From: Clostridia bacterium
GTDB lineage: Bacteria; Bacillota; Clostridia; JAAYHZ01
Assembly (NCBI GenBank): GCA_050950825.1
Contig: JBMNIH010000010.1
Location: forward strand, 1-64,000
Length of the DNA: 64,000 nucleotides
Reading direction: 5' to 3'
A model generated the notes under the pieces. It saw only the letters and a list, made by a program, of their open reading frames with translations, was not told the DNA's origin and ran no database searches. Of this stretch, positions 26,423 through 62,694 are shown piece after piece. Numbering within the stretch: position 1 is the first letter of the stretch; each line of letters begins with the position of its first letter. Position numbers and translations under genes: made by a program.

Positions 26423-26436
26423 AGGAGATTATGCAT

Positions 26437-38442: not shown

Positions 38443-38445
38443 CCT

Positions 38446-40961: not shown

Positions 40962-40981
40962 GGGAGTCTAGGCCGATTCAG

Positions 40982-42862: not shown

Positions 42863-43145
42863 ATTTGTAACCTCCTTATATATAGGCGCGAAAATTTTTT
42901 TCAGCACCGGTTATCCGTAAAAAAGCAATAGTAAAATTGTGCAATGAACAATACGTTTTTCACTGCAAAAAAATCCCCGTTTCCGGTCTTTCGAAGTATA
43001 AATGTTTTCCGATTTCTTGTTATGTGCCTGATGATAGTGTATAATATAAGCAGGAATATTTCCTTGACTATCATGCAATTTATTAGTAATATCCTACAAA
43101 ATTCATTTTCATACGTTCTCTCGTATGGAAAAAGAGGTGTTGAAG

Positions 43146-45379: not shown

Positions 45380-45426
45380 AAAAAATTATCTCCTCGTACA
45401 TGATCTTATGTCATTTTACCATAAAA

Positions 45427-45711
45427 TCAGATTTCCGAATCCGCCCCTTGCGAAATATCGATCATCTCCGCCGTGGAAAGCACCATGCCGTTGTCCAAGG
45501 ATTCCGGATCGCTGTCTTCTTTCGGGTTATGAAATGCCTTTTTCTCTTGATCTTCTTGGGGCTTTTTATACCCGTCACCGGCGGCATCTACAATAGGATA
45601 GCCGGTCATGGGCGTTCGACTTCCCTTTTTTAAGTTGTATTTTCTTACAATTACAGGATCCAGCTTGTACAGATTCCCCTCGATATTAACGAAAAGTTCC
45701 TGTTCATCCAT
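45427..45711 (-). CDS. small acidic hypothetical protein
   Basis: AAGGAGG SD; 94-aa ORF filling the intergenic gap. Confidence 0.75.
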   Translation of the reverse strand: MDEQELFVNIEGNLYKLDPVIVRKYNLKKGSRTPMTGYPIVDAAGDGYKKPQEDQEKKAFHNPKEDSDPESLDNGMVLSTAEMIDISQGADSEI

Positions 45712-45881
45712 TTTGCATCCTCCTTCAACATGTTTTCTTTTTTAGGTTTTGTAAAAAAGAAAAATGTATCCGAAAGTACAATAAATATTTCGGCTGTCCG
45801 AATATTATCACAAAAGCTTTATCGTTTTCCCGTGGTATAATATTGCAAAGCCATTTATTCCTGCAAGAGGAGAATAAGGAA

Positions 45882-48596
45882 ATGATAAATTATGAAACCT
45901 CGCTGTTACGTTGGAAGGAAAACAGGGACAAGTGCACCGTAAAAGACTTTTTTTACAAGGAAAGCACTCTGGAGCAAGCTCGACAAGGTTTTTTAAATAA
46001 TCATCCGGTCATGGTTTCTCTTTGCAATAGCATCAAGGAAAAATTCGGATATCTGTTGGAAACGGATTCCGAATACCTAATCCGAATGATTGAAGACACC
46101 ACACCCGGTCCATGCCACATGAATCTGTCTCCCGAACACGATTTCGGTGTTCCCCACGGCGTATGGACGTGGGATCCGAAGGACCCGGACGTCATCGTAG
46201 ACGAAATTACAAAAACTCGATTCCCCAATGATAAGTATCCGGAAACCGGCGTTTTGGAAACGCATTGGGGACGTCCTCAGCGATTCACCTTCTACACCGG
46301 AAAATCCATTCTGTACAACCGCTATCATATCTTTGCAAGCTTCAGCGGAAAGGTTCGATTTTACAAAGTTCAGTACATGACGGAAGCCGCTTACAACCTG
46401 GCCTTTTTGTACCGATTGACGGGACATTTCCCGTACGCACAAAAAGCTCGGGAAATACTGCTGCGCTTTGCCGAAGTCTACCCCTATTGGCTGGCCCACG
46501 GCATGTACGGAGATATCGCCGATATGGACCCGAGGATTGCAGGGCAAGACCCCGCCAATTTACCGTATCCGAGGACCTGCCTGCCTCCTAATGAGTCGAT
46601 CCGGTCGATTCACGTAGGCTATTGGAGCTTAGGAAGAGCCACCGCATCGGGACAGGAAGGAGGAGGCTTCCTGCTGCCCATGTGCATTACCTATTCCCTT
46701 ATCGCCGATGCCGTATCCCCCGAAAATATTCCTCTTTTTACCCAAGAGGAACGATACAAAATCGAAAAGGATATTCTTTTAGAGGGGATCTCTTTGGTTG
46801 TAAACGATACGAAGCTGAACAACAAATCCTGCAGCAACCGCTTCGCCGCTTTGGCGGTAGGTATACTAACAGGCGTAGAAGAGTACATCCGGTTCGGCCT
46901 GGAGGGCTTCTTTAATATCGTGGAGGACTGGTATTTAAAGGACGGCAGTACCTCGGAGTCTCCTTCCTACAGCATGATGGTTATGAACTCCATGTGGATA
47001 GCATCGGAGCTTATCGACGGATGCGAGAAGATAACCCGAGACGGGAAGCCCTTTGACGTATATCGGTGGGATAAATACCGCGCCGTGTGGAAAGGGATGT
47101 ACGATACTTTGCTTCAAAACTGCCAATACCCCCCTAGCGCCGATTGCCGAATGGGCACAAAGCTGTCCCCCTTATATATTCAAGTATTGGCTCATCGGTT
47201 CGGAAATCCGGAATACAAAGCCCTTCTTAAGCAATGTCCCGAAGTCGGCCTTCCTTCAAGAAGCATGTATCATTTTCTTCCGGACCTTGATGAAGCCCCA
47301 AAGCAATACGATCTCATATTCCGAGATCAATATTTTCCCGACTTCGGTCAAGCCTATTTAAGAATAGGAAAGAATAATCAAAAAGGTACCTTCATCCTTT
47401 ATGCTACCGATTGGGGCATTCATCATCATATGGACAGTCTGAACATCTTTTATTATTGGAACGGAAACGAATGGCTGTCCGATTTAGGGTATTTATGGGA
47501 CCAGCCGGAGCGGTATATGACCGTACGGACAGCGGCCCACAATCTGGTGGTTATCGATGAAAAAGACCAAATCCGAGAAGGTCGAGGCGGCGATTTGAAT
47601 CGGTTTGTAATCCTACCCGAAAAATGGAAAATAGCGGACGCATCCTCTCACGCTTACCCGGACGCATCCGTCTATCGTCGGGCGGTGATGCTGTGCGAGC
47701 ATTCCCCGGATCATCATTATATACTCGATTTGTTCCGTGTCCAAGGAGGAGAGGTCCGGGATCTTCTGCTCCACGGTCCCTCCATGGATTACACAATAGA
47801 AAATGCCGAATCCGGTCCTTGGGACGAAAAGCTTCCCTACGAATTGAAAAATGCCAAAAGGCTTTCTTCGACAAAGGACCTGACAATTACTTGGAAAGGT
47901 AAGGACCGAAACCTTTTCGGCCTTCATATTCCGGAAAACGGTAGTAAAAACGAGCGAATTCTCATGACGGAGGGTTGGGGACAAAGAGGCGTCACCGACG
48001 TAGGTGCCGTACTGCCCTACTTAATGAGAAGACATGAAGGAAAAGATCCCCATACCTTCATTACGATTTATTCAAGCTCGGAAAACGATCCCTTCGTTTT
48101 ATCAAGCAGATGCTTCCAAAGCCAAGACGAAAACATGGTCCTTTGCGAGGTTCAAACGCAATCCGGAAAAGACCTTCTCGTTTATCGCTTCGGACCGGGA
48201 GAAACCGTCGTAGACACTCCTTACGGTTCCTTAGAATACGACGGAGCGGCGGCTTGGATTCAAGACACAAAAGATCCTAAGGTCTATTTGTACGGAGGGG
48301 GAGCATTGCGTTTTGCGGGCCGCGAATGGAAGGCGTGTCACGAGACCTTGACAGGGGATATAGAAAGCTTCGACGAGAACGGTTTTTACGTATCCGTACC
48401 CTACGACCAAGCAAAGGATTGGATCGGAAGATCCGTCTATATTCAAAACGACCGAAGAAACACAGGATACTTGGTAAAAGGCATAATCAAAGAAAAAGAG
48501 GGTTCGAAAATTCTCACAAGATCCGAAGACGGCGACGGTTTTTCTTTCTTAGGCGGAAGGTCGTGGAGGATGGATGACGTAACGATTTACGAATAA
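45882..48596 (+). CDS. heparinase II/III-like polysaccharide lyase family protein
   Basis: DGSTSESPSY, HHHMDSLN, SDLGY, TAAHNLVVID motifs; no signal peptide. Confidence 0.85.
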   Translation: MINYETSLLRWKENRDKCTVKDFFYKESTLEQARQGFLNNHPVMVSLCNSIKEKFGYLLETDSEYLIRMIEDTTPGPCHMNLSPEHDFGVPHGVWTWDPKDPDVIVDEITKTRFPNDKYPETGVLETHWGRPQRFTFYTGKSILYNRYHIFASFSGKVRFYKVQYMTEAAYNLAFLYRLTGHFPYAQKAREILLRFAEVYPYWLAHGMYGDIADMDPRIAGQDPANLPYPRTCLPPNESIRSIHVGYWSLGRATASGQEGGGFLLPMCITYSLIADAVSPENIPLFTQEERYKIEKDILLEGISLVVNDTKLNNKSCSNRFAALAVGILTGVEEYIRFGLEGFFNIVEDWYLKDGSTSESPSYSMMVMNSMWIASELIDGCEKITRDGKPFDVYRWDKYRAVWKGMYDTLLQNCQYPPSADCRMGTKLSPLYIQVLAHRFGNPEYKALLKQCPEVGLPSRSMYHFLPDLDEAPKQYDLIFRDQYFPDFGQAYLRIGKNNQKGTFILYATDWGIHHHMDSLNIFYYWNGNEWLSDLGYLWDQPERYMTVRTAAHNLVVIDEKDQIREGRGGDLNRFVILPEKWKIADASSHAYPDASVYRRAVMLCEHSPDHHYILDLFRVQGGEVRDLLLHGPSMDYTIENAESGPWDEKLPYELKNAKRLSSTKDLTITWKGKDRNLFGLHIPENGSKNERILMTEGWGQRGVTDVGAVLPYLMRRHEGKDPHTFITIYSSSENDPFVLSSRCFQSQDENMVLCEVQTQSGKDLLVYRFGPGETVVDTPYGSLEYDGAAAWIQDTKDPKVYLYGGGALRFAGREWKACHETLTGDIESFDENGFYVSVPYDQAKDWIGRSVYIQNDRRNTGYLVKGIIKEKEGSKILTRSEDGDGFSFLGGRSWRMDDVTIYE

Positions 48597-48604
48597 AGGC
48601 TTTT

Positions 48605-48641
48605 AAAAAAATCCCTTCCGGCTTTGCCGGAGGGATTTTTT
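48605..48641. terminator. bidirectional terminator
   Basis: A7-TCCCTTCCGGC-TTT-GCCGGAGGGA-T6. Confidence 0.85.
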
Positions 48642-48651
48642 ATTCCTTGGT

Positions 48652-49749
48652 TTATATAATTTCAACCTTCGGAGGGCAGATATAGTCATGGAAACGACGG
48701 GCTGTGCAAGCGCTGTCGGCATCTCCGTCATGGAAATAGATTCGGTAGCGATAAACGGCACTTTCTCCTTCCTCCAAAGTACGGCTTCCCGTAAAGTAGA
48801 AGTTATTAGGGGCAAACAACCCGTAGTTACGAATATGCCAGTAAGTCGGATAGTGATCGTTTTCCGGGTTATCATAAACGGCAATTCCCGCAAGATATCC
48901 GTCGCTTATCCCGTAATAATCGCACCAGTGTGCTCTTTTTCCCCAGCACTCTTCTTCATCCTTCGCACCGTAGGAATTGATCATGGTGCCGCCCTTTGTA
49001 ACGTTCATGGTTTCCGCAACGCGGATTCCCAAGGGGCCCGCTTCTTTGGTGGGACCGAAAACAACTTTACCGAAGGAAGCTTTAAACCGGCTTTCGATAT
49101 CCACGTATCTTCCGGAGGAGGGCATATTGTAAAAGGTAAGGGTTCGGAATTCTTCCAAAACGGGATTTCCGTCAAAATCCGTCCAAAGATTGATAGCGTC
49201 AATCGCACCGTATACCGGACCGGATTTGCAGCAAGCCTTCGTTTGTTTTTGTTTTCCGTATCCTTCTCTTTCATTCCAAAAATCGATTCCGTTCACGTCT
49301 CCGATCGCAATCCAGACCGAACGCTGATGAGGATGCTCCTTTACCTGAAAGTCCAGTCGGGTAAACCTGTGGCCGTATGTCCCGATAATAGGTCCTAAAT
49401 ACGGCTTGGCGAAGTTGGAATCGTAAACATAAGATGTAAAGAGCTTGCCGTCAATGGAAACATCGATGCGATTTTCTTGTTGCAATAAGCTTACACCTGA
49501 AGAAGGAAAATCGCCTTGTTCCAAAACGTAGGTTTTTTGCTCTCCCGCCTTAAGAGACACCGTAAAATGCAAAACGACGGCATCCTTATCCGTACTTATT
49601 TGAACGGGAAATCTTTCATTCGCTTCATCTCTCAAGACATGCGCTCCGTCCGTTAAAATGCTCCCTTTTTCCTTCGGCAGAGTAACGGAAACCGGACAAT
49701 CCTGCCTGTCATGACGTCCGGCATTTACAACCAGCTTGATTCCTTCCAT
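48652..49749 (-). CDS. PmoA-like/DUF6807 family protein (not a methane monooxygenase)
   Basis: KPYL.P, HPHQRS.W, DFW, WGKRA.WCDY, WHIR.YGLF..N motifs. Confidence 0.8.
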   Translation of the reverse strand: MEGIKLVVNAGRHDRQDCPVSVTLPKEKGSILTDGAHVLRDEANERFPVQISTDKDAVVLHFTVSLKAGEQKTYVLEQGDFPSSGVSLLQQENRIDVSIDGKLFTSYVYDSNFAKPYLGPIIGTYGHRFTRLDFQVKEHPHQRSVWIAIGDVNGIDFWNEREGYGKQKQTKACCKSGPVYGAIDAINLWTDFDGNPVLEEFRTLTFYNMPSSGRYVDIESRFKASFGKVVFGPTKEAGPLGIRVAETMNVTKGGTMINSYGAKDEEECWGKRAHWCDYYGISDGYLAGIAVYDNPENDHYPTYWHIRNYGLFAPNNFYFTGSRTLEEGESAVYRYRIYFHDGDADSACTARRFHDYICPPKVEII

Positions 49750-50025: not shown

Positions 50026-50049
50026 TAAATATTTACAAGGGTGAGGTTG

Positions 50050-51315
50050 ATGCTTAAGATTGTCTATCCCATCTGTTGTGGAATTGATGTCCACAAAAAG
50101 TTTGTAATTGCCACTATTGCCACCACCAATGATAAAAATGTTACTTCCTATCAAACACGTCGTTTTAATACTTTCAAAAATGATCTAATCGCTCTCAACA
50201 ACTGGTTAGTAGAAAACAAGTGCAAAGATGTCTGTATGGAATCCACCGGAAAGTACTGGATTCCTGTTTTTAACGTGCTCGAGGATTTCTGCACTATTAC
50301 CCTTGCAAACCCGAGATACGTTAAAAATATCCCAGGTAAGAAAACCGATAAGCGAGATTCAATTTGGCTTGCTGACTTACACAAGCATGCATTGGTAAAA
50401 GGTAGCTTTATCCCATCTAAGCCTATACGGGAGTTGCGGGATTTAATTCGGTACAAGTCTAAACTTACCAACGTCTCTTCCAGTGAGAAAAACCGGGTGC
50501 AAAATTCGCTTACAGTTTCAAACATCATGCTTGCCAATGTTGTTTCCGACACCTTCGGCAAGTCTGCTTCCTCAATTATTAAGCACATGATAGAGAATCC
50601 TGATATCATCGACTTTGATTATTCTTCAATGCTCCACAAAAGTCTGAAGAAAAAATCGGATGAAATTGAACAAGCCGTTGCTGGTAAATTCTCTAAGGAG
50701 CAAGCGGCAAAATTGTCTGTATGCTATGAGCACTATAACAGCGTTGAAAAATGCATCGAAATACTGGAAGCTACAATACTCGAGCTATCTTTACCTTTCA
50801 AAGAACAAATTGACATCATCGCTACTTTACCTGGTATTAAGCAGGCATCGGCTACAGCTATTCTTTCAGAAATCGGAACCGATATGTCCGTCTTCACCTC
50901 GGACAAGCATCTTTGTTCCTGGGCTGGCCTTACACCCCAGAGTAATGAAAGTGCCGGTAAGAAGAAAAGTGTCCGTATTAGCCGCGCCGGTGTCTACATT
51001 AAACCTTTACTTGTCCAGTGTGCTAATGCCGCTGTAAAGGACAAGTCCTGCACTGTTTTCAAAAACCGCTATGAAGCGATTAAAAAACGTCGTGGTCACA
51101 AACGTGCTATTATTGCTACCGCAAGAATGATTTTAACCTGCATCTATCACATGCTCTCTAAAAATGAGCCATTCAATCCATTGCTGTATGATGACAATGC
51201 GAAATCTAAGAAGCGTAATCAGCAGGATTCTCTAAGTATTGAGCAGGCCATCGCATTTTTGCAAGCCAATGGGTATACTGTGAATATTTCTGATCTAGTG
51301 GCAATAACAAACTAA
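50050..51315 (+). CDS. IS110 family transposase/recombinase
   Basis: GIDVHK, MESTG, KTDKRD (DEDD); SWAGL.P...ESAGK; intact ORF. Confidence 0.96.
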   Translation: MLKIVYPICCGIDVHKKFVIATIATTNDKNVTSYQTRRFNTFKNDLIALNNWLVENKCKDVCMESTGKYWIPVFNVLEDFCTITLANPRYVKNIPGKKTDKRDSIWLADLHKHALVKGSFIPSKPIRELRDLIRYKSKLTNVSSSEKNRVQNSLTVSNIMLANVVSDTFGKSASSIIKHMIENPDIIDFDYSSMLHKSLKKKSDEIEQAVAGKFSKEQAAKLSVCYEHYNSVEKCIEILEATILELSLPFKEQIDIIATLPGIKQASATAILSEIGTDMSVFTSDKHLCSWAGLTPQSNESAGKKKSVRISRAGVYIKPLLVQCANAAVKDKSCTVFKNRYEAIKKRRGHKRAIIATARMILTCIYHMLSKNEPFNPLLYDDNAKSKKRNQQDSLSIEQAIAFLQANGYTVNISDLVAITN

Positions 51316-51421: not shown

Positions 51422-52042
51422 TTATTGTCTCTTCGTTAAGGTTTTTTCCAAAAAACCGAGCACGATATGTCCCGCCTTTAACATGGTAAATGCCTGCCAT
51501 GCCGTTCCAAAAAGAAGGCAAAACAGGTGTATATAAAGACCTTTGTATGCCAATAAGTTTCCTACAATTATATATATGCATACCACAATTATCGATCTTC
51601 TTTTTAGCTTTTTGATTTTCTCCGGTTTGGTAATCGGTTTATTCGGACTGTCTACCGGGGCTTTGGCAATAACGACCCAAAGTGCAAGCAGCAAAAGAAT
51701 ATCGGTTAAGACATATACAAAGACAGGATCCGCGTTTTGTACCCCTATCAGCTTAAATACCGTAGGCATCAAAACGCTTATTACCACTCCCGTAAGGCTG
51801 CAAATCCAAATCGATGACAAATGAGCACCGCCTGCATTGATTCTTAAGATGCTTACGGAAAAACTTAAAATCAAAGATGCATACAAAGTGCCCAGTAAAG
51901 AAGAAAAAACGAGAATCAAAATCATTACGAAAACAAATTGAATAATGGCCAAAAGCCCGTAAATAATGACTTCTTTTTGATCTTGATCCGCCTTAATTGC
52001 CTCGGCGATCTTTTCTCCTAAATTTTCGGCCAGCTTATACAT
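51422..52042 (-). CDS. agrB: accessory gene regulator B (AIP-processing protease)
   Basis: YGL, LR.NAGGAH.....C catalytic His/Cys region, APVDSPNKP; multiple TMs. Confidence 0.92.
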   Translation of the reverse strand: MYKLAENLGEKIAEAIKADQDQKEVIIYGLLAIIQFVFVMILILVFSSLLGTLYASLILSFSVSILRINAGGAHLSSIWICSLTGVVISVLMPTVFKLIGVQNADPVFVYVLTDILLLLALWVVIAKAPVDSPNKPITKPEKIKKLKRRSIIVVCIYIIVGNLLAYKGLYIHLFCLLFGTAWQAFTMLKAGHIVLGFLEKTLTKRQ

Positions 52043-52505
52043 CTTTCCTCTTCCTCATGAACTTAAAGTAATAAACAAGAAATACTTGAACCGCAAGAAT
52101 GATGGTTGACGGAATCGTGTATACCATTCGGGTGTTTGAATCCTTCAAAATCAATTCCATCTTTTCGGGGAATAATAAGTGGATCGATAAAAAATTCAAC
52201 GCTTCCGATATAATTAAAAACAGTACCAACATCAAAGTACCGTTAATAACCTTGGTAAGCGGAATTTTTGCAATAAGATTAAAAATGACCACCAAAACGG
52301 CCATGGTGATGAGTAAGCTCATGCCGTATCCTGTCATCTGAAGAACGGACCGAGATATAAAAGTAACGATCATTAAGATCGCCCAAAGTAAAAGCATTTC
52401 ACCGGTTTTCGGCCTCTTTATATCGCAAAAATAATAAACGCACAAAGCGGCAAGAATTGATTCCGGCGCTCCTTTTACAAGTATTTCCCAAACACTAGTT
52501 TCCAT
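52035..52505 (-). CDS. multi-TM membrane protein of unknown function
   Basis: 156 aa, 4-5 hydrophobic helices; stop overlaps the agrB start. Confidence 0.8.
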   Translation of the reverse strand: METSVWEILVKGAPESILAALCVYYFCDIKRPKTGEMLLLWAILMIVTFISRSVLQMTGYGMSLLITMAVLVVIFNLIAKIPLTKVINGTLMLVLFLIISEALNFLSIHLLFPEKMELILKDSNTRMVYTIPSTIILAVQVFLVYYFKFMRKRKDV

Positions 52506-52508
52506 TCC

Positions 52509-53060
52509 CTACTTCCCCCCGCAATATCTGTTATTTAATAAAACAATCATATTATAAAAAACGATCACAAAATATGCTTTCATTATAATATCGCCGATAC
52601 TCATTACACAATAACCAAAATCAAATATGTCACCTAAAAAATTCATTTTGGTTTGTTCACTCATACCGATATGTATGGCCCCCGGCGCGGAGAAAGTAGC
52701 TTCATTCGAAAAACCGGTCAAGTTGGAAAAGGTAAACTTAACCGGCATTTTGCCCCCGTTCGCATTCATTACCAATTTATTTAACAATGTTCCGACCAAG
52801 ACCAAGCCGCATCCGAATATTGCCGATCGGTAAAGCTTAAAATAAAAAACCGGTAATATCAAATACAAGAAAAACCCGGTTTTTAAAATTCCGGCGTACC
52901 GGATTACGTCAAGGTTACCCTTTGCCGACAGGTATTGAAAAACCCAAAAAACAATTTCCAATGCCAAGAACGGATAAATTATGAAACTTCTAAAAATAAC
53001 AAAAGGCTTGTATCCTTTAATCCAAGCAATAACAAATGCAGCTATTAAAAAAGGTAACAA
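52509..53060 (-). CDS. DUF5317-like membrane protein
   Basis: G..LN.LV..ANGGKMPV, H.....TK..FLGDIF, SIGDI motifs; GGAGG SD before TTG 53060. Confidence 0.8.
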   Translation of the reverse strand: MLPFLIAAFVIAWIKGYKPFVIFRSFIIYPFLALEIVFWVFQYLSAKGNLDVIRYAGILKTGFFLYLILPVFYFKLYRSAIFGCGLVLVGTLLNKLVMNANGGKMPVKFTFSNLTGFSNEATFSAPGAIHIGMSEQTKMNFLGDIFDFGYCVMSIGDIIMKAYFVIVFYNMIVLLNNRYCGGK

Positions 53061-53061
53061 T

Positions 53062-54738
53062 TTAATGTGCCTCCGCAAGTTCAATATTGGCATGCTCCGA
53101 AGCCGTTAACAAAAACTCCAAGAATTGATCCGTCAATTCAGGATCAAAATGTTTTCCTTTGCACCGTTTTATTTCTTCGACGGCTTCCTCAAAGGATAAT
53201 TTTTTTTTGTATGGACGGTCATTGGTCATGGCATCGAAGCTATCGATAATCGTAAGCAAACGAGCCTCTTTGCATATTTGCTCGCCTGCCAAGCCGTCCG
53301 GATAACCGGTACCGTCATAACGCTCGTGATGCTGCCTTACAATCGGTATGATTTCCGGATCGTATCCTAATTCCGATATGATTCTTGCGCCCCATTCGGG
53401 ATGCTTCTGCAGCATTTGGAATTCTTCGTCGGTCAATTTGGTTGATTTCATTAATACGCGAGAAGGAATATTGATTTTACCGATATCGTGCATATACGCT
53501 GCAAAAATCATTACTTTTTTGGTGCATTCATCGTATCCTGCCCACTCGGCAAAGCTCTTCATGTAATTGACAACGTTTTCGATGTGATTGTATGTAAATT
53601 CGTCTCGGGTATTAATGACCGTAATTAACGTCCTTATGGCCGTAAACATTTCGCTTGTATATTTATCGTCGTTATCTATGTTTTCAAATATGTTTTCATA
53701 TTTTCGAACCTGGTTCTTGTCCATAAATTTCGCACGATACAATGCTATATCCGCAAAGCGAACCAGATCGTCCACGGACTTCGCTTCATCGCTCATTTTT
53801 GCAACGCCAATGGATACCGTCAATTTCTTTTCAGGCAAATATTCCTCTCCGTAGAATTTCGTAGATTTCACTTGGTCGCAAATTTTATGAGCGATTTCCA
53901 TGGCTTGATTTTCGGTGAAAGGCCCGGTTATGGCAAACTCGTCTCCGCCTTGCCTGCAAACAATGCCGTTTTGAGCATTTTCCGTAAAGATATTGGCAAA
54001 TTGGACTAGAATGTCATCGCCTTGGACGTGTCCGTGGTATTCGTTATAGGTCTTGAAATTATCAATATCTATTAATATTAAAGCTAAGGGAGTATTGTCA
54101 TGATGGTAATGCTGGATCTTGTCTTCAAGATAAGAGATCAGATATCGATGGTTATAAACGCCCGTCAAACCGTCTTTTTCCGCCAAATCCTTTAAAACAC
54201 CGATATATTTTTCTTTTTCACTTAAGTAATATCCGATTATGTAAGAGGTTAAAACAAGCTCCAAAGCAAAGAGAATGTTTCCCTCCATCATGACCTCGGT
54301 GGCCGTTTTAAAATGCGATTGGGCAAGGGTATATATGGTGACAAAAGCAAGAGAGGACGATATACCCCATGTCAATCCGTTTTCTATGGTCATGATGATA
54401 ACAACAAGGAAAAACAAGTGCTTGTGGTCTCGCGCTAAGGAAGGAGATGCGCATGCTATAATAATCCCGCCTACTAAAAAAAACAAAAAAATGTTCTGCA
54501 GTTTTTTCAGTATCTTCTCTCTTTTTGAAAACTTAAATCCGATAAAAAGCCATATGGAGAAAAGAGCAAGAAAAAGTATTATGCTTGCATAAAAAGGACC
54601 CGGACCTTCCATAATTATTTCCGTAACGCTTCTATCGGAGAAAAGTACTTGAAATAACATGAAAGCCGAAGCAAACATCAACAGCAACTTGATTGATGAC
54701 AATAGATTGATAAGTTTTCCGTTATTGTACGAGTACAC
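53062..54738 (-). CDS. membrane-bound diguanylate cyclase / HD-GYP phosphodiesterase hybrid
   Basis: About six N-terminal TMs; DGLTG, DIDNFK, GGDEF; HDIGK, HHERYDGTGYP; GTG start at 54738 (ORF track 54756). Confidence 0.93.
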   Translation of the reverse strand: MYSYNNGKLINLLSSIKLLLMFASAFMLFQVLFSDRSVTEIIMEGPGPFYASIILFLALFSIWLFIGFKFSKREKILKKLQNIFLFFLVGGIIIACASPSLARDHKHLFFLVVIIMTIENGLTWGISSSLAFVTIYTLAQSHFKTATEVMMEGNILFALELVLTSYIIGYYLSEKEKYIGVLKDLAEKDGLTGVYNHRYLISYLEDKIQHYHHDNTPLALILIDIDNFKTYNEYHGHVQGDDILVQFANIFTENAQNGIVCRQGGDEFAITGPFTENQAMEIAHKICDQVKSTKFYGEEYLPEKKLTVSIGVAKMSDEAKSVDDLVRFADIALYRAKFMDKNQVRKYENIFENIDNDDKYTSEMFTAIRTLITVINTRDEFTYNHIENVVNYMKSFAEWAGYDECTKKVMIFAAYMHDIGKINIPSRVLMKSTKLTDEEFQMLQKHPEWGARIISELGYDPEIIPIVRQHHERYDGTGYPDGLAGEQICKEARLLTIIDSFDAMTNDRPYKKKLSFEEAVEEIKRCKGKHFDPELTDQFLEFLLTASEHANIELAEAH

Positions 54739-54763
54739 TGTCGCAATGACCTCCACCTAGTGA

Positions 54764-54797
54764 AAAGGCTGTAAAAAGTAACCTTTCCACAGCCTTT
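54764..54797 (-). terminator. stem-loop between agrD and the DGC/PDE gene
   Basis: AAAGGCTGT...ACAGCCTTT with a short U-tract. Confidence 0.55.
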
Positions 54798-54808
54798 CTT
54801 GTAGCTTG

Positions 54809-54934
54809 TTACTTATTTTGCAACGATGTCGGCTCCTTCGGTTGGTGGATGAAAAGCCAGCATGCCGAGGTTGCCAATAGTGTTGCTACTACAGAAGCTA
54901 CAACTGCAGCTACTTTTAGTGCTTTTTGTTTCAT
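54809..54934 (-). CDS. agrD: AgrD-type cyclic autoinducing peptide precursor (41 aa)
   Basis: AAGGAGGT SD; MKQKALKVAAVVASVVATLLATSACWLFIHQPKEPTSLQNK with the clostridial TSA-C-x4-HQPKEP signature; heads the agrB operon. Confidence 0.93.
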   Translation of the reverse strand: MKQKALKVAAVVASVVATLLATSACWLFIHQPKEPTSLQNK

Positions 54935-55212
54935 TTGTTTTACCTCCTTCTTTAAGTATTCATTCATATGATATAAACATGAATGTCTATTTAATAAGCC
55001 GGTCTCTTTTCATAAGAAGCCTTTCCATCGATATAATTGTTCTAATAACCTTCCGCTTGCCCATACGTCTAATTGTGATTGTACCAAACCGCTGCGCGGT
55101 AGCTCAACAGTATTTACCCTTTTCGGGTCCTAACCTTTATATTTAATTCCTATCACCTTCAAAATCGTATATAATAGCTCCCATTAATTTGATTTTGAAA
55201 GGTGGTATTGTT

Positions 55213-56088
55213 ATGTCAACAAATTTATCCGTCGATTTTGATCAAGCGCTCCACAATGTTAAGTTTGTTCTTGAGACCTGCCGTTATTCTCAAAGAACAA
55301 TCTATCTTTATGAGCGACAAATTATTAAGTTTTATCAAACGGTTCAGAAACATCCCTGTCAAATCTCTCAGCAAGATGTACTTTTGTATTTGCACGGTCT
55401 TGTTAAGCGATCCTTGAGTGCGGATTACATCAACCAAGTCAGAGCAGCCATACGTCTTTTCTTCCGTGTAGGATTGCAAAAAACTTTTGATGAGTCTTTA
55501 CTTCCTCGTGTTCGTAAGGAAACTGTACTGCCTGCCGTATTGTCGCAAAATGAAATCAAACGAATATTTTCCTACATAAGAAACCCTCGATACAGAGTCA
55601 TTCTATACCTTTGTTATTCTGCAGGTCTTCGTCTCGGAGAAGCCTTGAATCTAAAAATCAAAGATATTGACAGTGAGAATATGCAGATCGCCGTTCGAAA
55701 AAGTAAAAACAACAAAGATCGCTATACGATACTGTCTCCGGAGTATTTGACGCTTCTTCGAGATTATTGGAGGCTTTACAGACCTGAAGGTCCTTATCTT
55801 TTCCCGGGTGCCTCTTCCGGTAAGCCTATGGCAGCGCAGGGAATCCAAAAGGCGTTTCATGATGCCGTAATAAAAGCCGGAATCCGCAAAAATGCGTGCA
55901 TTCATTCTTTACGCCATAGCTTTGCGACACACCTTTACGAATCCGGACAAGATATCGAAGTCATACAATCCCTACTCGGTCATGCAAGCATTTGGACCAC
56001 CAAACGTTACACGCACTTGGCACGGAAGCATCTTCAAGGGGTGAAGAGTCCGGCTGACGGTTTCGGAGGTGATTTTAATGTCCTCTAA
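55213..56088 (+). CDS. tyrosine recombinase with N-terminal SAM-like domain
   Basis: GLRLGE, KNNKDR, HSLRHSFATH, LLGH, TKRY: full catalytic set; ATG 55213 behind AAAGGTGG. Confidence 0.95.
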   Translation: MSTNLSVDFDQALHNVKFVLETCRYSQRTIYLYERQIIKFYQTVQKHPCQISQQDVLLYLHGLVKRSLSADYINQVRAAIRLFFRVGLQKTFDESLLPRVRKETVLPAVLSQNEIKRIFSYIRNPRYRVILYLCYSAGLRLGEALNLKIKDIDSENMQIAVRKSKNNKDRYTILSPEYLTLLRDYWRLYRPEGPYLFPGASSGKPMAAQGIQKAFHDAVIKAGIRKNACIHSLRHSFATHLYESGQDIEVIQSLLGHASIWTTKRYTHLARKHLQGVKSPADGFGGDFNVL

Positions 56089-57235
56089 AATTCAAAAGAT
56101 CTTTCAGTCCTTTAAAGAGAGATTGCCGTCCCAAAGCTATTCTCCCCAAAAAACAAAAGTCATTGACGCAATCTGTAAGTGCCGCACTCCCGAAATGGGA
56201 GGATTCGTCCAACGATGTGACGATTGCGGTTACACCGAGGCACATTTCAATTCCTGCCGAAATCGACATTGTCCCGTTTGTCAAGGGTCCAACCAAAGAA
56301 AATGGGTTGAAAAGCAAGTCGCCAACACGCTCCCGATACCCTATTTCCACGTGGTTTTCACCGTGCCTGCCGAACTCAATCCCTTGTTTCTTGCAAACCC
56401 CGACAATATGTTCAATCTGCTCTTTCGTGCCGCTAGTCAAACCGTTTTGACTCTCTCGGAGAACGAAAAATTTCTCGGGGCGCAACCCGGCTTTATCGCC
56501 GTCTTACATACATGGGGGCGAAACATTCAGTTCCATCCCCATTTGCATTGTATCGTAACGGGCGGCGGATTGTCCAGCGATCGCAAACGATTCGTTGTTT
56601 CCAAAGATTCCTTTTTCCTTCCTCTTAAAGCGATCAGCATCGTTTTCCGGGGAAAGTTCCTCGAGGAATTGAAAACATTCTTTGTTAATAACACCCTTCA
56701 ATTGACGGAAGGTTTGGATACCGTTCAAAAAAGGCAACAATTTCTGGACTTACTGTACTCCAAGGATTGGGTATGCTATTGCAAGAAACCGTTTAAAGAC
56801 GCTTCCGCCGTTATACGGTATCTCGGCCGATATACTCACAAAGTGGCGATCTCGGACAGCCGAATCGTTTCTCATAATCCCGACACGCAGACGGTGCGTT
56901 TCCACTGGAAAGATTACAAAGATCACAACAAAATCAAGATCATGCAGCTTTCCGAAGACGAGTTCGTACGCCGTTTTCTCCTCCATGTGTTGCCCAAAGG
57001 ATTCATGAAAATTCGACATTACGGATTGCTTGCCAACCGAGGAAGAGAAGAGCGTTTGGAATTATGCAGAGATTTGCTGAAGGCAACCGCACCCACGGGA
57101 GTTATTCAAGAATTCCCCAAGTGCAAAGTTGAACCTCTTGACCGCTGTCCGAAATGCGGAAGCCAATCTTTTCTTTTGGTTCCTCGCTCTTTGTACGCGC
57201 AGCCGGCTTTATTGCCTACCGGTACCGGACCGTAG
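56078..57235 (+). CDS. IS91-family rolling-circle transposase
   Basis: Zn-binding CDDC..SCRNRHCPVC, HPHLH (HUH), YLGRY (Y-x3-Y), LHVLPKGF..IRHYG. Confidence 0.95.
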   Translation: MSSKIQKIFQSFKERLPSQSYSPQKTKVIDAICKCRTPEMGGFVQRCDDCGYTEAHFNSCRNRHCPVCQGSNQRKWVEKQVANTLPIPYFHVVFTVPAELNPLFLANPDNMFNLLFRAASQTVLTLSENEKFLGAQPGFIAVLHTWGRNIQFHPHLHCIVTGGGLSSDRKRFVVSKDSFFLPLKAISIVFRGKFLEELKTFFVNNTLQLTEGLDTVQKRQQFLDLLYSKDWVCYCKKPFKDASAVIRYLGRYTHKVAISDSRIVSHNPDTQTVRFHWKDYKDHNKIKIMQLSEDEFVRRFLLHVLPKGFMKIRHYGLLANRGREERLELCRDLLKATAPTGVIQEFPKCKVEPLDRCPKCGSQSFLLVPRSLYAQPALLPTGTGP

Positions 57236-57642: not shown

Positions 57643-58488
57643 CTAATTGTCAAATCCCCATATCTTCTTTATGTATTCTAATGCCTCTTTGCTATTTTTT
57701 TCAAAGTTATCGGTTTTACACTCGAACGAGAAATAACCGTTGTAACAAATCTTGTCCAATACTTGGGCTAATCGGAGAAAATCAACACCTTCTTCTATGG
57801 TTTCTTTCGGGAACAGGCGATTCCTATCGGACAAATGAACATGAACCAGCTCATGGGCTGCATACTCGATAATATCGAAAGATTCGCTTTCTTCGAACAT
57901 ATGGTAGGTATCCGCTAACAATTTGATACGAGGCAGATTCAAGTCCTTTACAATCGTAAGCCCCTCCGCTACGGTATTGATAACGTTGCACTCTTTTCGG
58001 TTCAACGGCTCTACCGCTACCGTCAGCCGATATTTTTCTCCGTATTCATTGCACAATTTTAAAAAATCCGTTAATTGGCTCATTCCTTTTTCAACCGGGT
58101 AACCGTCGGGAATCCTTCGAGCACCGCCGCTTCCGAAAATAATGAGCTTCCCATTCAGACGTCGGATACGGCTCATGACAAGATCCAAATACTTTGCAAT
58201 TTCGTCTCGGTCCACAAGGTTCCCTGTTAACGGTAAACGCGAAGGAATGAAACTATTGAACACGGGTATTTCATAAGAATTTTCTTCTAAAATCTCCGAA
58301 AGTCGATACGTTTCCTCGTCCGTCAACCCGGCAACGGCACCGACGGTCAATTCACCGAAATCAAATCCGTTGGATTTTAATAAAGCCAGCCCTTTTTCAA
58401 TACCGGTGACCGTATCAAGCGCATTCTTCTCTTTATCCTCAATTTGAGGAACAAAAGAACCTAACGGTAAACAACATCCGAAAGACAT
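57643..58488 (-). CDS. sugar phosphate isomerase/epimerase (xylose-isomerase-like TIM barrel)
   Basis: FGSGGAR, EPLN..E, DTYHM, HVHLSD..R, FEC metal ligands. Confidence 0.88.
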   Translation of the reverse strand: MSFGCCLPLGSFVPQIEDKEKNALDTVTGIEKGLALLKSNGFDFGELTVGAVAGLTDEETYRLSEILEENSYEIPVFNSFIPSRLPLTGNLVDRDEIAKYLDLVMSRIRRLNGKLIIFGSGGARRIPDGYPVEKGMSQLTDFLKLCNEYGEKYRLTVAVEPLNRKECNVINTVAEGLTIVKDLNLPRIKLLADTYHMFEESESFDIIEYAAHELVHVHLSDRNRLFPKETIEEGVDFLRLAQVLDKICYNGYFSFECKTDNFEKNSKEALEYIKKIWGFDN

Positions 58489-58897
58489 TTTTTTACCCTT
58501 TCTTCAATAATGAATACAATCTAAAGCCATATAAAGTAAAGCGACGATTATAGTTTACCATATTTCTGTGAACATGTATATTTATTCTGAACATTTTTAT
58601 CTTTTTTATTATTTGACAATAATCGCTGTGGCAGCACTCGTAACCGTTTCCATCAAAAATCATCGTTTTCATCCGATTAATCAATAATTTAAGCATAAAT
58701 ATACACCATAATATAAATAATGAAAAGATTTTTCTCGTTGTTTCCGCCGGAATATAAAATTATAAGAAAAAAATACTGACAAACTGCAATATTCGCAAAA
58801 TGAAATTTTCATCAATAAGTATTGCTATACCCTATGGCAGCCGGTAGAATTTTTTTAACCGGTAGTAAATGAAAACTCTCACGACAGGAGGAGTATT

Positions 58898-60673
58898 ATG
58901 TCTGTTGCTCTGCTGATCGAAGAAAAAAAAAGGGTCTCGAACGGTTCCGATCCGAACAATTGGAACCCGTATATGGAGGAGGTTTTTGACGAATTGGGTA
59001 TCGCCGCTTCCGTATACCGTACCGAAGAAGAACTGCTCCGAGATCTTCAAGGGAAAAAATGCGTAGTACTTACGGATTCCGATTTATCGGAAAAAGCTTT
59101 TCTCAAATTATCCGAGTGGGTTGAAAAAGGAAGCGTTCTTATCGGTTTTCAAACAAAGGGAGCCGACCCGTTATTCGGAATCGAGGACGCCGGAGAGTTA
59201 AAACAGGGGGACGACCCCTTTACGATCAACGGGTATATCTCCCTAAAGAAAAAAGAATACCTTCCGGTGGAAGAAGCGTACAAGCATACGCTGCCGGTGA
59301 TCTCTCCCGTTCGAAGAATCCTTCCAAAGGACGCGGAGGTCATCGGAGAAATGCTGACTCCCGTATCATCCAATATCTTTCAAGGTAATTCCGAATACGC
59401 CGCCATAACCGTCAAGCCGAAGGGCAAGGGCTTTTGCTTTTACTTCTCCTACGGCCTCGCCCAGACGGTATGCGTTATTCACCAAGGCCGCCCCGTGGAC
59501 AGAGATTACGACCAAGACGGTATGTATCGAACCGGAGACGGCATCGTATTGACCTCCGCCCACGACTTAAGCCTTCCTTATGCCGATTACCATTTGTACA
59601 TTTTACAGTACATGACGGATAAAGCGGGGATTCCTTCCAAACACTTTTTGCCTCCTGCGGACGGTCAAATTTCGGACCTTTTGCTCCACTACGGCGGCGA
59701 TGACGAAGCGGACCCGAGCGGCATACAAAGAAAAGCCATGGAATTCATGAAAAGCCGAGGACTGCCTTATCATTTCAACATCATGCCTAATAAGGACATA
59801 ACCGGTTTTGAAGTGGACAAAGAGCTTTACGACGAAATTCGAAGAAACGGACAGGAATGCTCTCTTCATTTTAACTTCTTAAAAATTCGAGAATTCTTAA
59901 CGAAGGAAGAATTCGATCAACAGCTGGACCTCTATGAAAAATACTACGGCGAAACGCCGGTTGTCACCGTTAATCACTGCTTAATTTTTCGAGGTTGGAC
60001 CGAACAAGCTCGCTGGGCTTCCGAAAGAGGAATAAAAGGAGACAACAGCAGAGCCCATACGCGGCTAATGCCGGAAGCCAATCCCGTGAACGTATTCGGT
60101 TTGGCCTTCGGAACCACTTACCCTCATTTCGTTTACGACGATCATCTTCACGGCAATCGTCGTCTACCATACACCTATATCCCCATTGCTTTCTACGAAG
60201 CACGGGTACGGATCGATGAACACCATGAAAAGGACATAAAAAGGCTTTGGGACATCCTGCAAAAAGCGGTGGACAACGCGTGGACCATGAACATGTTTTT
60301 CCACCCGGTCTATATCGCAAGAACTCCGGAATGTACCGAAGCCATCGACCAATTGTTAAAATTTATAGAACAAACCGGATACCGATCCGTTCATATGGGC
60401 AACGATAAGCTGTGCTTATGGTGGTTTGATCGGTCAAAAAGCGAAGTAATAACGGAAAAGCAAACGGAAAAAGAGCTTGTTTTGAAGGTTTCCGCAACGA
60501 ATAAAGAAGGCTTGGTTATTAGAATTCCCGATTCTTTAGGTTTTAATGTTTGTTTTGTAGACGAAAAGAAAACCGTTTGTGAAAGAAGAAAGATTGCCGG
60601 GAGATACTGTCTTTTAGCCGTTATCCCCCAAGGCGTTCATCAAGTAGTTTTAAAACGAGAGGTGCCTTTATGA
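58898..60673 (+). CDS. hypothetical protein with GATase-like N-domain and polysaccharide-deacetylase-like C-domain
   Basis: GGDDE, LHFN, VNH, FFHP pattern of NodB-like barrels; AGGAGG SD. Confidence 0.6.
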   Translation: MSVALLIEEKKRVSNGSDPNNWNPYMEEVFDELGIAASVYRTEEELLRDLQGKKCVVLTDSDLSEKAFLKLSEWVEKGSVLIGFQTKGADPLFGIEDAGELKQGDDPFTINGYISLKKKEYLPVEEAYKHTLPVISPVRRILPKDAEVIGEMLTPVSSNIFQGNSEYAAITVKPKGKGFCFYFSYGLAQTVCVIHQGRPVDRDYDQDGMYRTGDGIVLTSAHDLSLPYADYHLYILQYMTDKAGIPSKHFLPPADGQISDLLLHYGGDDEADPSGIQRKAMEFMKSRGLPYHFNIMPNKDITGFEVDKELYDEIRRNGQECSLHFNFLKIREFLTKEEFDQQLDLYEKYYGETPVVTVNHCLIFRGWTEQARWASERGIKGDNSRAHTRLMPEANPVNVFGLAFGTTYPHFVYDDHLHGNRRLPYTYIPIAFYEARVRIDEHHEKDIKRLWDILQKAVDNAWTMNMFFHPVYIARTPECTEAIDQLLKFIEQTGYRSVHMGNDKLCLWWFDRSKSEVITEKQTEKELVLKVSATNKEGLVIRIPDSLGFNVCFVDEKKTVCERRKIAGRYCLLAVIPQGVHQVVLKREVPL

Positions 60674-62679
60674 AAGAATTCTTGTTAAACGGACCGGAAG
60701 ATTACAAAGTCATGTGCCAAGAAGGCGTAAAGCAGTATGTGTTTCCCTTGGAATATTCGCATAATGCCATATGGGACAGCAACGTAAGTCCTGAAGGCAA
60801 ATTCTATTTCGGCCTTGCTTCCGAAATATTCACAGGAAACTATGTACGTTTGTGCGAGTACGACTATGAAAAGAACGATATTCATGTTCTGTTTGCCGTC
60901 GAGGACGTCATTTTGCCAAGCGACCGTACCATAAGAGCAAGTAAATTTCATACTTCCATCAGCTTCATGAAGGACGGCAAAATGATTATGACCACCCACA
61001 CCACGGACAAAAGTCCCGCCCATCCCACATGGATGCCGGAAGCGTATTACCACCACCTGTGGGAAGGATTCCCGGGATCCAACATCATCATTTACGATCC
61101 TTCCACAAAAGAAGCATGGAATATGGGTGTTCCGGTTCCCCGAGAGTCGATATACGGTGCCGTGTACGATCCCGGACACCATGCCCTATTTTTCACCGGC
61201 TTTTTCAAAGGCCATATCTACCGATACGACATTGACAAAAAGAGGGTTGCCGACTTAGGAAGAGTGTCGGAAAACTATGCTTTCCGACTGGTATTAGGTC
61301 CGGACGGTAACATTTACGGCGCCTCACGAAGCGGATATGTCTATAAAGTAGACTCCGAAACCTTAAGGATTACGGACATGAATTATCGGCTTCCCCATTA
61401 CAACTACAAATACTCGAGAGATTTTCGTAATATCAGTATCGGACGGATCGGGCCGGATGGACGCCTTTACTTTGCGGTGATGTACGGTCGTGACATAGTC
61501 GCATTGGATACAAAAACCGGTAAATTTGAAAGTATGGGAAGTTATCTTCCTTCCGACCACTATGTCAAAGGCGAAAACCGAAACGGGATTTTCGGCATGG
61601 ATTTTGACAGCAAGGGGGTCCTTTGGTATGCGGTATCCGCAAAAAACGATACCGCCGACAAGCCTGAAACCGGTCTTCCCGGCTCTTTGTTCCGCTGGGA
61701 TATTACAAGATCCGGAAAACCGGAATGGGTCGGACTTTTAGGCACCAAAAAACGTGTCGGCGCATGGATCAGCGAGGTATGCATCTCCAAAGACGATATC
61801 CTTTATGCGGCCGGCTCCAACCACAGCCTGGACGGTCCGGACATTACCGCTATCGATCTGAAAACGTTCGAACCGAATATGCATAAGCTTTCGGAAGGCT
61901 TGGAAGACCGATTCTATGATCCGAGTGCACCCGAATACATTGCAAGCTCGAAAAAGCTGTTCGATTTGGAGGAAATCGGAAAGGAAAATCCCCATACCTT
62001 CGACCTGCCTTTGGCCGCATCACCTATACTTCTTTGGCGGGCGTTAGCACCCGACAGCATTGACAATTCCTCCGTGACGGGATTGTTTTGGAATGAAGAG
62101 GGAATTTTGTACGGCATTTGCGGCAAAGACCAAAGGTTTATCTTTGAAATCAAGGATTTGAAATTGAATCGTATAGAAAAAATCGACAGCTTGGATAAGG
62201 ATTTTGTTTCGGACCTTTTGGACAAATTCGAACCGAAGCCTTCGAACTTAAAAACGTCATTTAAGCTTCCTTCGTATCCCGGAAGGCAATACAAAGCGGT
62301 ACCTTCGGTCCATGCGGAATTCTCCGAAGGACGAATCGTCGTAGGAACAAAAGACGGCATGTTAGCTATCGTATCCGATAACGGCGTATATTCCCTAGGA
62401 CCCGCTTCGCCGAACGGGCCTATTCATGCCATGACCGTAACACCGGACAAGACCCTTTTGTTCGGCGTTGCCGGCGACCCGGACGACATCGGTTCCGTCT
62501 TTACCTACGACGACAAAAACGGTCTTTTGTGGAAAGGATATATCATCTATGAAGCCGTCGATTCGGCAGGTGCGGTATGCTGTTCTCGATTGTCCTGCTG
62601 TTCCGTCAGCAAAGACGGGAAATATTTGGCCATTGCATCCAACGACCGATTAGGAACGGTCCTTTTGTATCAATTGTAG
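60670..62679 (+). CDS. beta-propeller hypothetical protein
   Basis: Repeated GPDG.IY, YD..T...DLG and TPD..LFG blades; ATGA-type overlap with the upstream gene. Confidence 0.7.
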   Translation: MKEFLLNGPEDYKVMCQEGVKQYVFPLEYSHNAIWDSNVSPEGKFYFGLASEIFTGNYVRLCEYDYEKNDIHVLFAVEDVILPSDRTIRASKFHTSISFMKDGKMIMTTHTTDKSPAHPTWMPEAYYHHLWEGFPGSNIIIYDPSTKEAWNMGVPVPRESIYGAVYDPGHHALFFTGFFKGHIYRYDIDKKRVADLGRVSENYAFRLVLGPDGNIYGASRSGYVYKVDSETLRITDMNYRLPHYNYKYSRDFRNISIGRIGPDGRLYFAVMYGRDIVALDTKTGKFESMGSYLPSDHYVKGENRNGIFGMDFDSKGVLWYAVSAKNDTADKPETGLPGSLFRWDITRSGKPEWVGLLGTKKRVGAWISEVCISKDDILYAAGSNHSLDGPDITAIDLKTFEPNMHKLSEGLEDRFYDPSAPEYIASSKKLFDLEEIGKENPHTFDLPLAASPILLWRALAPDSIDNSSVTGLFWNEEGILYGICGKDQRFIFEIKDLKLNRIEKIDSLDKDFVSDLLDKFEPKPSNLKTSFKLPSYPGRQYKAVPSVHAEFSEGRIVVGTKDGMLAIVSDNGVYSLGPASPNGPIHAMTVTPDKTLLFGVAGDPDDIGSVFTYDDKNGLLWKGYIIYEAVDSAGAVCCSRLSCCSVSKDGKYLAIASNDRLGTVLLYQL

Positions 62680-62694
62680 CCAAGGAGGTCTTTT

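Follow-up and report, generated by a model that had tools for sequence, protein, structure and literature searches.

The agrBDCA operon of Staphylococcus aureus is the textbook system of peptide quorum sensing of this type. It is described in PMC3754575; the passages used from this source and from PMC13220807 deal with transcriptional links and with RpfR, through which a quorum signal reaches the turnover of cyclic di-GMP (c-di-GMP; PMC13220807). In Clostridium perfringens, the operon runs CPE1563-CPE1562-agrB-agrD, with two 'hypothetical' open reading frames (ORFs) and a 135-bp agrD lying between CPE1561 and CPE1560 (PMC2706048), and the likely natural signal is a five-residue thiolactone ring (PMC7492741). 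For C. botulinum and C. difficile, agrBD loci of the unlinked kind have already been published (PMC4885068), and for Agr1 of C. difficile (agrB1D1) the passages describe the receptor as unidentified and the peptide as acting 'through an unknown regulatory pathway' (PMC4885068, PMC11210211). Here we analyse 64,000 nucleotides (nt) of contig JBMNIH010000010.1 from a Clostridia bacterium (the window), in which the minus strand at 51422-54934 carries five co-oriented genes: agrD, a gene for a membrane enzyme with GGDEF and HD-GYP domains, a DUF5317 gene, the gene for a membrane protein of 156 amino acids (aa) that we name M156, and agrB. What is new is agr quorum sensing in which a c-di-GMP enzyme, replaced by a PAS kinase in some genomes, is joined to one and the same putative sensor domain of the membrane; no description of agr peptide genes wired to a c-di-GMP enzyme was found in the open literature, judged mostly by titles. 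Clostridial agrBD loci control toxins, sporulation and biofilm, and a linked receptor is usually lacking. The cassette offers a definite candidate for the sensor, along with two accessory proteins that are likewise conserved, and would link peptide quorum sensing to c-di-GMP in Gram-positive bacteria.

A conserved five-gene cassette

The features of the cassette in the window are listed below in order of transcription, with database matches given where a family was recognised.

54809-54934, minus strand: agrD, 41-aa precursor of the autoinducing peptide (TIGR04223, E 1e-11, 44.7 bits, cut-off 19)
54763-54798, minus strand: hairpin with a 16-bp stem, about 11 nt after the agrD stop, then TTTTCAC
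53062-54756, minus strand: GGDEF+HD-GYP membrane protein, 564 aa
54187-54756, minus strand: N-terminal polytopic membrane domain of the enzyme, residues 1-190, with about five hydrophobic segments by hydropathy
53713-54177, minus strand: GGDEF domain, residues 194-348 (PF00990, E 6e-36, 124 bits; TIGR00254)
53134-53631, minus strand: HD-GYP domain, residues 376-541 (PF13487 HD_5, E 3e-39, 134.9 bits)
52509-53060, minus strand: DUF5317, 183 aa (PF17248, E 2.5e-21, 76.7 bits, cut-off 25)
52035-52505, minus strand: M156, a helical membrane protein of 156 aa, 3 nt after the DUF5317 stop
51422-52042, minus strand: agrB, a membrane peptidase/cyclase of 206 aa (PF04647, E 1.5e-36, 125.9 bits, cut-off 23)

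The agrD start was placed at ATG 54934, 7 nt after AAGGAGG (the ORF lister had given 54809-54967), and that of DUF5317 at TTG 53060, which lies 9 nt beyond a GGAGG site and a single nucleotide beyond the TAA of the enzyme gene and gives a protein of 183 aa, not 194. A preliminary description of this DNA had claimed five co-oriented, tightly packed genes, with gaps of 1-3 bp or overlaps between the last four. All five genes are real and on the minus strand, and the last four are separated by 1 nt, 3 nt and an 8-nt overlap, the last being that of the agrB start with the end of M156. The gap between agrD and the enzyme gene is 52 nt (or 70 nt), with the hairpin inside it.

Conservation was surveyed with a DUF5317 profile search of contigs from one genome per species, the best 80 of 200 relatives being taken as loci (L001-L080) with 8-kb flanks. 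The ORFs of these loci were searched with the five proteins of the window and then with family profiles. Gene order was counted in the 62 loci with at least 3.7 kb of sequence beyond DUF5317; a contig end interrupts most of the other 18. The order DUF5317-M156-AgrB-AgrD-enzyme, on a single strand, was found in 60 of the 62, a figure made up of an automated count of 59 and of L008, where the AgrD ORF had been mis-called and the search with the window proteins gave the canonical order. The two exceptions are L002, which has the order of the window, and L019, a kinase variant described below. L001 and L002, whose DUF5317 proteins are 60-70% identical to that of the window, group with the window in a sub-clade, and all three share a cyclic permutation, AgrD-enzyme-DUF5317-M156-AgrB, in which the adjacencies AgrD-enzyme and DUF5317-M156-AgrB survive. 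Median spacings over the loci were 28 nt for DUF5317-M156, -8 nt for M156-AgrB (62 loci) and 64 nt for agrD-enzyme.

Thus, the five genes stay together in relatives, a point on which the preliminary description had staked its reading, though the order in the window is itself permuted. Because the cassette is kept in 60 of 62 loci, chance or artefact is ruled out: the feature is real and conserved across many Clostridia. The outer flanks vary from locus to locus and hold unrelated housekeeping or metabolic genes, as seen in a Pfam scan of the 145 flank ORFs of L001-L045; the 127 flank ORFs of L046-L080 were covered with REC and kinase profiles of our own making, a less sensitive tool than Pfam. 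By record title, the bearers include many species of Clostridium (among them C. sporogenes, C. tepidum, C. sardiniense, C. cadaveris, C. disporicum and C. senegalense), Eubacterium multiforme, Zhenhengia and Neobittarella, together with metagenome-assembled genomes labelled Oscillospiraceae, Ruminococcaceae, Christensenellaceae, Peptococcaceae and others. Five-gene cassettes with a membrane signal-output protein of their own make up a large group of agrBD loci. A few loci depart in detail: in L048 (9926-11611) the enzyme gene falls into two ORFs (110 aa and 449 aa), in L070 (6001-7551) it is short, at 516 aa, and two M156 genes stand in tandem in L080 (8551-9586). These may be frameshifts or assembly errors.

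The two peptide genes are recognised as agrB and agrD by family membership and conserved residues. The AgrD of the window has a signal-peptide-like leader, SAC, a ring C-W-L-F-I and then HQPKEP, and its C-terminal end reads ...TSACWLFIHQPKEPTSLQNK. The family has the same layout, a leader followed by [ST]-[ST]-A-C, four variable residues and a conserved acidic, Pro-rich end, [YH]QP[EK]EP; the pattern [SA]AC-x4-[YH]QP occurs in 75 of 75 members, and variability in their alignment (n=75) is confined largely to the four residues after the Cys, as fits a tail-less five-residue thiolactone. In the AgrB family, His74 is kept in 75 of 76 proteins and Cys81 in all 76, a seven-residue spacing that we take to correspond to the catalytic pair H77/C84 of S. 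aureus. The product is probably the five-residue thiolactone cyclo-CWLFI, formed by the putative action of AgrB, and probably without a tail because the AgrD leader ends in a signal-peptidase-like site, TSA/C.

The hairpin after agrD has a minimum free energy of -25.7 kcal/mol, computed for the 78 nt 3' of the agrD stop. It is a recurrent feature: a stem of at least 8 bp follows agrD in 56 of 73 loci, with differing sequences, and in 37 of the 73 there are also at least four T in the next 9 nt. The element may be a leaky terminator or may stabilise the transcript. In the permuted order of the window it stands before DUF5317, M156 and agrB as well as before the enzyme gene.

The membrane domain and its outputs

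The second gene of the cassette encodes both a cyclase-type and a phosphodiesterase-type domain. The preliminary description had taken both to be intact, and the motifs are indeed present in the window (RQGGDEF at residue 268, HD at residue 423 as HDIGK, and HHERYDGTGYP at residue 476) and are conserved across a family set of 66 proteins, the window's and 65 orthologues: GG[DE]EF in 63, HDxGK in all 66 and HHE..GYP in 65. Since these motifs are kept across the 66 proteins, both activities are probably real. The RxxD inhibitory site (I-site) is common among GGDEF proteins and does not define all of them. Five residues before GGDEF, RxxD is found in 43 of the 66 proteins, and its claimed loss from the window is confirmed, the residues there being AQNG. 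It is likewise absent from L001 and L002, and by this comparison the missing I-site is a trait of the window's small clade only. Within the enzyme family, the membrane domain has a mean pairwise identity of 0.39, against 0.55 for the GGDEF domain and 0.63 for HD-GYP.

The membrane domain is also found on proteins of another kind. A profile of residues 1-190 matches, over its full length, the N-termini of six proteins of 615-619 aa (E 1e-39 to 1e-53), and three of the six, those of L070, L079 and L029, were scanned with Pfam and have PAS-HisKA-HATPase_c behind it. By BLASTP over about 180-200 residues, the kinases are 35-48% identical to the Clostridium enzymes and 23-29% identical to that of the window; in this domain, the kinases resemble the enzymes (35-48%) as closely as the enzymes resemble one another (mean 39%). 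The enzyme is replaced by the kinase in L019 and L044, at the very position that it has in the order of the window: M156-AgrB-AgrD-kinase-DUF5317. In L070 (C. sporogenes), L029, L041 (C. tepidum) and L079, it stands beside a paralogue of M156, 0.4-1.6 kb from the cassette, and in L070 a further M156-AgrB pair follows it. Since it also heads PAS histidine kinases in other genomes, we read this domain, on these comparisons, as a portable agr-linked input module with exchangeable outputs. One putative input module with two outputs, both in an agr context, is the strongest comparative sign of a role in the peptide circuit. A third kind of output beside the same genes is seen in L004 (4370-7508), where a 512-aa GGDEF-only protein, unmatched by the sensor-domain profile, is followed by DUF5317-M156-AgrB.

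If the membrane domain reads the peptide, the two should diverge together, and the preliminary description had proposed looking for such covariation. It was found. For the 60 loci with all parts, with ring distance taken over the four residues, a partial Mantel test of ring against membrane-domain distance, controlled for HD-GYP distance, gave r 0.31 (p 0.0005), whereas the same test for the GGDEF domain gave r 0.02 (p 0.34). Among close pairs (HD-GYP distance <=0.12), the membrane-domain distance was 0.131 for pairs with the same ring (n=5) and 0.258 for pairs with different rings (n=20), while HD-GYP distances in the two classes were nearly equal (0.082 and 0.085). M156 distances were 0.198 for same-ring and 0.278 for different-ring pairs. 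At the DNA level, the membrane part was less conserved than the catalytic part in six of six different-ring pairs (e.g. 0.74 against 0.94), and the two parts were about equally conserved in five of five same-ring pairs. Comparison of L029 with L041 shows a variable block that runs from the C-terminal half of AgrB (0.58) to the membrane domain (0.74), with agrD within it at 0.93 and flanks at 0.93-0.94. The pattern is reminiscent of S. aureus and its hypervariable agrB-agrD-agrC region. On these alignments, the covariation of ring and membrane domain gives moderate support to a sensor role for the domain.

Who reads the peptide

The reading towards which we lean slightly, from the comparison of sequences, is that the peptide would be sensed by the membrane domain of the enzyme, alone or together with M156, and would shift c-di-GMP synthesis against breakdown. 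In this scheme AgrB would process AgrD to the five-residue thiolactone cyclo-CWLFI; the membrane domain of about 190 aa, alone or with M156, would detect the cognate peptide outside the cell; detection would shift the balance of cyclase against phosphodiesterase; and cell density would thereby be written into the c-di-GMP level. More tentatively, and at what we would put somewhat short of an even chance, the module and M156 could form a new class of receptor for autoinducing peptides in Clostridia, encoded right after agrD and fused to GGDEF/HD-GYP or to a PAS kinase. If true, thiolactone peptides would directly set c-di-GMP or, via orphan kinases, phosphorelay outputs; this would extend to the agr loci of toxigenic clostridia with unexplained upstream 'hypothetical' ORFs and missing receptors, and would offer a rule for the pairing of peptide and receptor in gut and soil Clostridia.

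Several points weigh against a sensor role for the enzyme. Residues 1-190 match no Pfam family at E<=0.001, and no MASE model at E<=0.5; MASE2 is a feature neighbour of the domain in the ESM Atlas (0.91, 167 shared features), which is a lead only. The occurrences of the domain that were covered are those in agr contexts, and the survey, anchored on the best 80 of 200 window-like DUF5317 proteins, speaks for agrBD loci that bear DUF5317. The ring is correlated with M156, DUF5317 and AgrB too (r 0.19-0.22), so recombination that exchanged the whole left part could produce some of the signal; moreover, relatedness is not removed by the Mantel test, and the close pairs are few and share members. 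The conserved hairpin between agrD and the enzyme gene may mark separate transcriptional control: because it follows agrD in 56 of 73 loci, read-through into the enzyme gene may be partial, or that gene may be driven by its own promoter. Finally, the C. perfringens signal peptide is bound by VirS, a kinase encoded elsewhere (PMC7492741).

Classical receptors were sought in the window and beside the cassettes. The preliminary description had reported no histidine kinase or LytTR regulator, and none of the 50 window ORFs of at least 90 aa matches HATPase_c, HisKA or LytTR. Over the 80 loci, our own profiles found seven REC ORFs, in five loci, the nearest 1.4 kb from the cassette. In L018 (4128-6011), L032 (4995-6880) and L048 (5863-7742), a 423-aa AgrC-type kinase (HATPase_c_5) followed by a second AgrB lies just upstream of the cassette, and no gene with a REC domain was found near these units. 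Because these three loci carry AgrC-type kinases nearby, classical receptors can coexist with the cassette. That the enzyme stands 'instead of AgrC/AgrA' was not established, the window covering 64 kb of the genome and the C. perfringens peptide being bound by the distant kinase VirS. Nor was the circuit established as a 'one-component' one, as had been proposed, since M156 may be the ligand-binding part. The overall reading as a c-di-GMP switch keeps its synteny, its motifs, the shared domain and the covariation, while its sensing step is one that we infer.

M156 matches no family in Pfam or NCBIfam. It has relatives of similar length in 69 representative clusters at E<=0.001, and the family profile finds it in 77 of the 80 loci, where it always adjoins AgrB or a sensor-domain kinase, and it is regularly in the company of a protein that bears the sensor domain. 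A search for named relatives gave 21 proteins by profile, the named ones all 'hypothetical protein' and C. perfringens absent, and four with the single sequence. The structure models are confident, with a predicted local distance difference test (pLDDT) of 90.3 for M156 and 93.2 for DUF5317. Against the PDB, M156 has no sequence match and no fold match (best E 0.88). In an ESM Atlas structure search, its first row, tied with the second, is a cluster of 438-aa HATPase_c_5 kinases, with a template-modelling (TM) score of 0.76 and an alignment of 147 residues over M156 residues 1-150; helical bundles reach high TM scores easily. As a lead only, M156 may on this model be a free-standing AgrC-like sensor. 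Its alignment by hhalign to the N-termini of the AgrC-type kinases of L018, L032 and L048 has a probability of 2%, and kinship to the membrane domain of the enzyme, to AgrB or to DUF5317 was rejected, at <=7%. A complex prediction for residues 1-190 with M156 scored 0.15 (mark 0.32), which carries no weight either way.

DUF5317 has ten invariant residues in an alignment of 83 sequences (N94, N101, G103, M105, P106, D144, G149, S154, G156 and D157), which include a polar and acidic cluster in the membrane. No mention of DUF5317 was found in the literature searched, with subscription journals and supplementary files outside the search. The motifs NGGKMPV and SIGD had raised the possibility of an LspA-like or GxGD-type aspartyl peptidase that cuts SA/C; it was rejected as unsupported, DUF5317 having no sequence match and no fold match in the PDB (best E 3.1) and the AgrD leader already resembling a signal peptide. 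A MASE9-HD_5 protein in L037 (5942-7789) stands directly before a divergent DUF5317, without intervening agr genes, and L064 (13-1098) has a similar pair, in which the fetched sequence ends within the HD-GYP protein. Such pairs suggest that DUF5317 partners HD-GYP enzymes in general. The second agr locus of L070 has M156 and AgrB, and lacks DUF5317. Because DUF5317 follows HD-GYP proteins without agr genes and is missing from that second locus, we take it, from gene context, to be an accessory on the output side rather than a part of peptide synthesis.

We weigh three other explanations against this background. The genes might be co-located without any sensing by the enzyme: c-di-GMP turnover and peptide production would be co-regulated, a distant VirS- or AgrC-type system would read the peptide, and the membrane domain would sense something else, or nothing. 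The binding of the C. perfringens pentapeptide by VirS fits this well, as do the hairpin, which may give the enzyme its own expression control, and the AgrC-type kinases with a second AgrB near three cassettes. We nevertheless regard it as unlikely: it is the membrane domain, and not the catalytic domains, that diverges with the ring, the same domain is reused on kinases directly after agrD, and in different families of Clostridia the cassette has stayed whole between changing flanks. The VirS study itself allows for further receptors and mentions, from its pull-down with the peptide, a band of about 75 kDa that it left unidentified (PMC7492741). A related proposal, in effect a variant of sensing by the membrane domain, is a split receptor in which M156 binds the peptide and signals within the membrane to the enzyme or the PAS kinase, the membrane domain of the enzyme being the docking or transducing part. 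Its attractions are the Atlas neighbour of M156, the M156 paralogues that stand beside sensor-domain kinases without AgrB in L070, L029, L041 and L079, and the smaller M156 distance of same-ring pairs; we nonetheless think it quite unlikely, given the hhalign result with AgrC-type N-termini, the missing PDB match, the ease with which helical bundles score, and the comparison of L029 with L041, whose M156 genes are 94% identical in DNA despite the difference in ring while the membrane domain is at 74%.

A third possibility is that M156, DUF5317 or both serve maturation, export or self-protection of the peptide, for example removal of the leader or transport, and have no part in signalling. The overlap of M156 with agrB, of the same 8 nt in the window and in the median locus, speaks for such a role, as do the Asp, Asn and Ser that never vary in the membrane part of DUF5317, and an agrB mutant of C. 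perfringens was complemented only by a fragment with both upstream ORFs, which the promoter may explain (PMC2706048). Against this stand the M156 paralogues beside kinases without AgrB, the DUF5317 genes that follow HD-GYP proteins in L037 and L064, the second agr locus of L070 with M156 and AgrB and no DUF5317, the lack of a fold match of either protein to a peptidase or transporter, and an AgrD leader that already ends in a signal-peptidase-like site. Taken together, a maturation role is in our judgement improbable, and sensing by the membrane domain, alone or with M156, is the reading we carry into the comparison below.

Surroundings and known systems

The cassette of the window has a G+C content of about 39-40%, against about 44% for the window as a whole, and is bordered by mobile genes on both sides.

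50041-51315, plus strand: IS110-family transposase, on one side of the cassette
55189-57235, plus strand: tyrosine recombinase and IS91-type (Y2) transposase, on the other side
48652-49749: DUF6807 gene, outside the mobile genes
57643-58488: gene for a xylose-isomerase-like TIM-barrel protein, outside the mobile genes

In L001 the TIM-barrel gene lies directly before agrD, and in L002 the DUF6807 gene lies directly after agrB, in both cases without the mobile genes. Because these outer neighbours adjoin the cassette in the two closest related loci, the insertion sequences on both sides are later arrivals and the place of the cassette is older. A region that looks like one for polysaccharide use encloses it (35932-49749 and 57643-63843), with genes for beta-helix proteins, a heparinase II/III-like protein, DUF6807, the TIM-barrel isomerase-like protein, a GFO/IDH/MocA oxidoreductase and an AraC regulator. 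The host forms spores, and its GerA-type germination operon lies at 14-18 kb of the window. Elsewhere, an ORF for a C-5 cytosine DNA methylase (25283-27456, plus strand) overlaps the longest-ORF call of a BNR-repeat protein by about 150 nt, and no restriction enzyme was seen adjoining it. An Rfam scan of 48-59 kb found no riboswitch or other RNA, and a tblastn search of PLSDB with DUF5317, made for plasmid carriage, gave zero matches. A promoter scan returned 17 sites against 12.2 +/- 3.7 expected, and thus did not discriminate.

Compared with the S. aureus agr system, the cassette shares an AgrB (PF04647, with the His/Cys spacing) and an AgrD that would yield a thiolactone peptide, and a ring whose variation goes with that of a membrane sensor, here a putative one, from the gene next after agrD. 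It differs in having neither AgrC (an HPK10 kinase with HATPase_c_5) nor AgrA (REC+LytTR) in the window or alongside the cassette; the gene after agrD encodes a GGDEF+HD-GYP protein with an unrelated membrane domain, and there are two extra membrane proteins. The full cassette is present in C. sardiniense (L030, L071) and Eubacterium multiforme (L036), presumably close relatives of C. perfringens. The C. perfringens operon itself, in the parts of the literature cited, has two ORFs, agrB and agrD, co-transcribed and with no kinase alongside, and this agrees with the canonical order of 60 of 62 loci, the order in the window being permuted relative to it. By layout, not by sequence, we infer that CPE1563 and CPE1562 may correspond to DUF5317 and M156. 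Unlike the reading favoured here, the known C. perfringens receptor is, in those sources, the distant kinase VirS of VirS/VirR.

For the agr-1 and agr-2 loci of C. botulinum and C. sporogenes (PMC4885068), the locus to compare is L070 of C. sporogenes, which has the cassette, then an M156 paralogue with the 615-aa kinase (PAS-HisKA-HATPase_c), then a further M156 copy with a second AgrB. In C. botulinum, CBO0336 (615 aa) and CBO0340 (617 aa) are described as '5 TM-PAS-HisKA-HATPase' orphan kinases (TM, transmembrane), with their function given as not determined, and the review passages concerned draw no link to agr (PMC11210211). The L070 kinase looks like their counterpart, by length and architecture only. 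Agr1 of C. difficile, a species outside the 80 loci, resembles the cassette in being an agrBD pair for which the cited passages give no linked two-component system.

The nearest functional parallel lies in Burkholderia and Xanthomonas, with RpfR, a PAS-GGDEF-EAL protein and receptor of the Burkholderia diffusible signal factor (BDSF), and with RpfC/RpfG, the latter an HD-GYP protein. As in the scheme favoured here, in RpfR and RpfG a receptor or its partner turns a quorum signal into c-di-GMP turnover. There, a cytoplasmic PAS domain or a kinase senses the signal, a fatty acid, whereas in the cassette a polytopic membrane domain would sense a peptide; the bacteria are Gram-negative, and the input domains are not homologous to that of the cassette.

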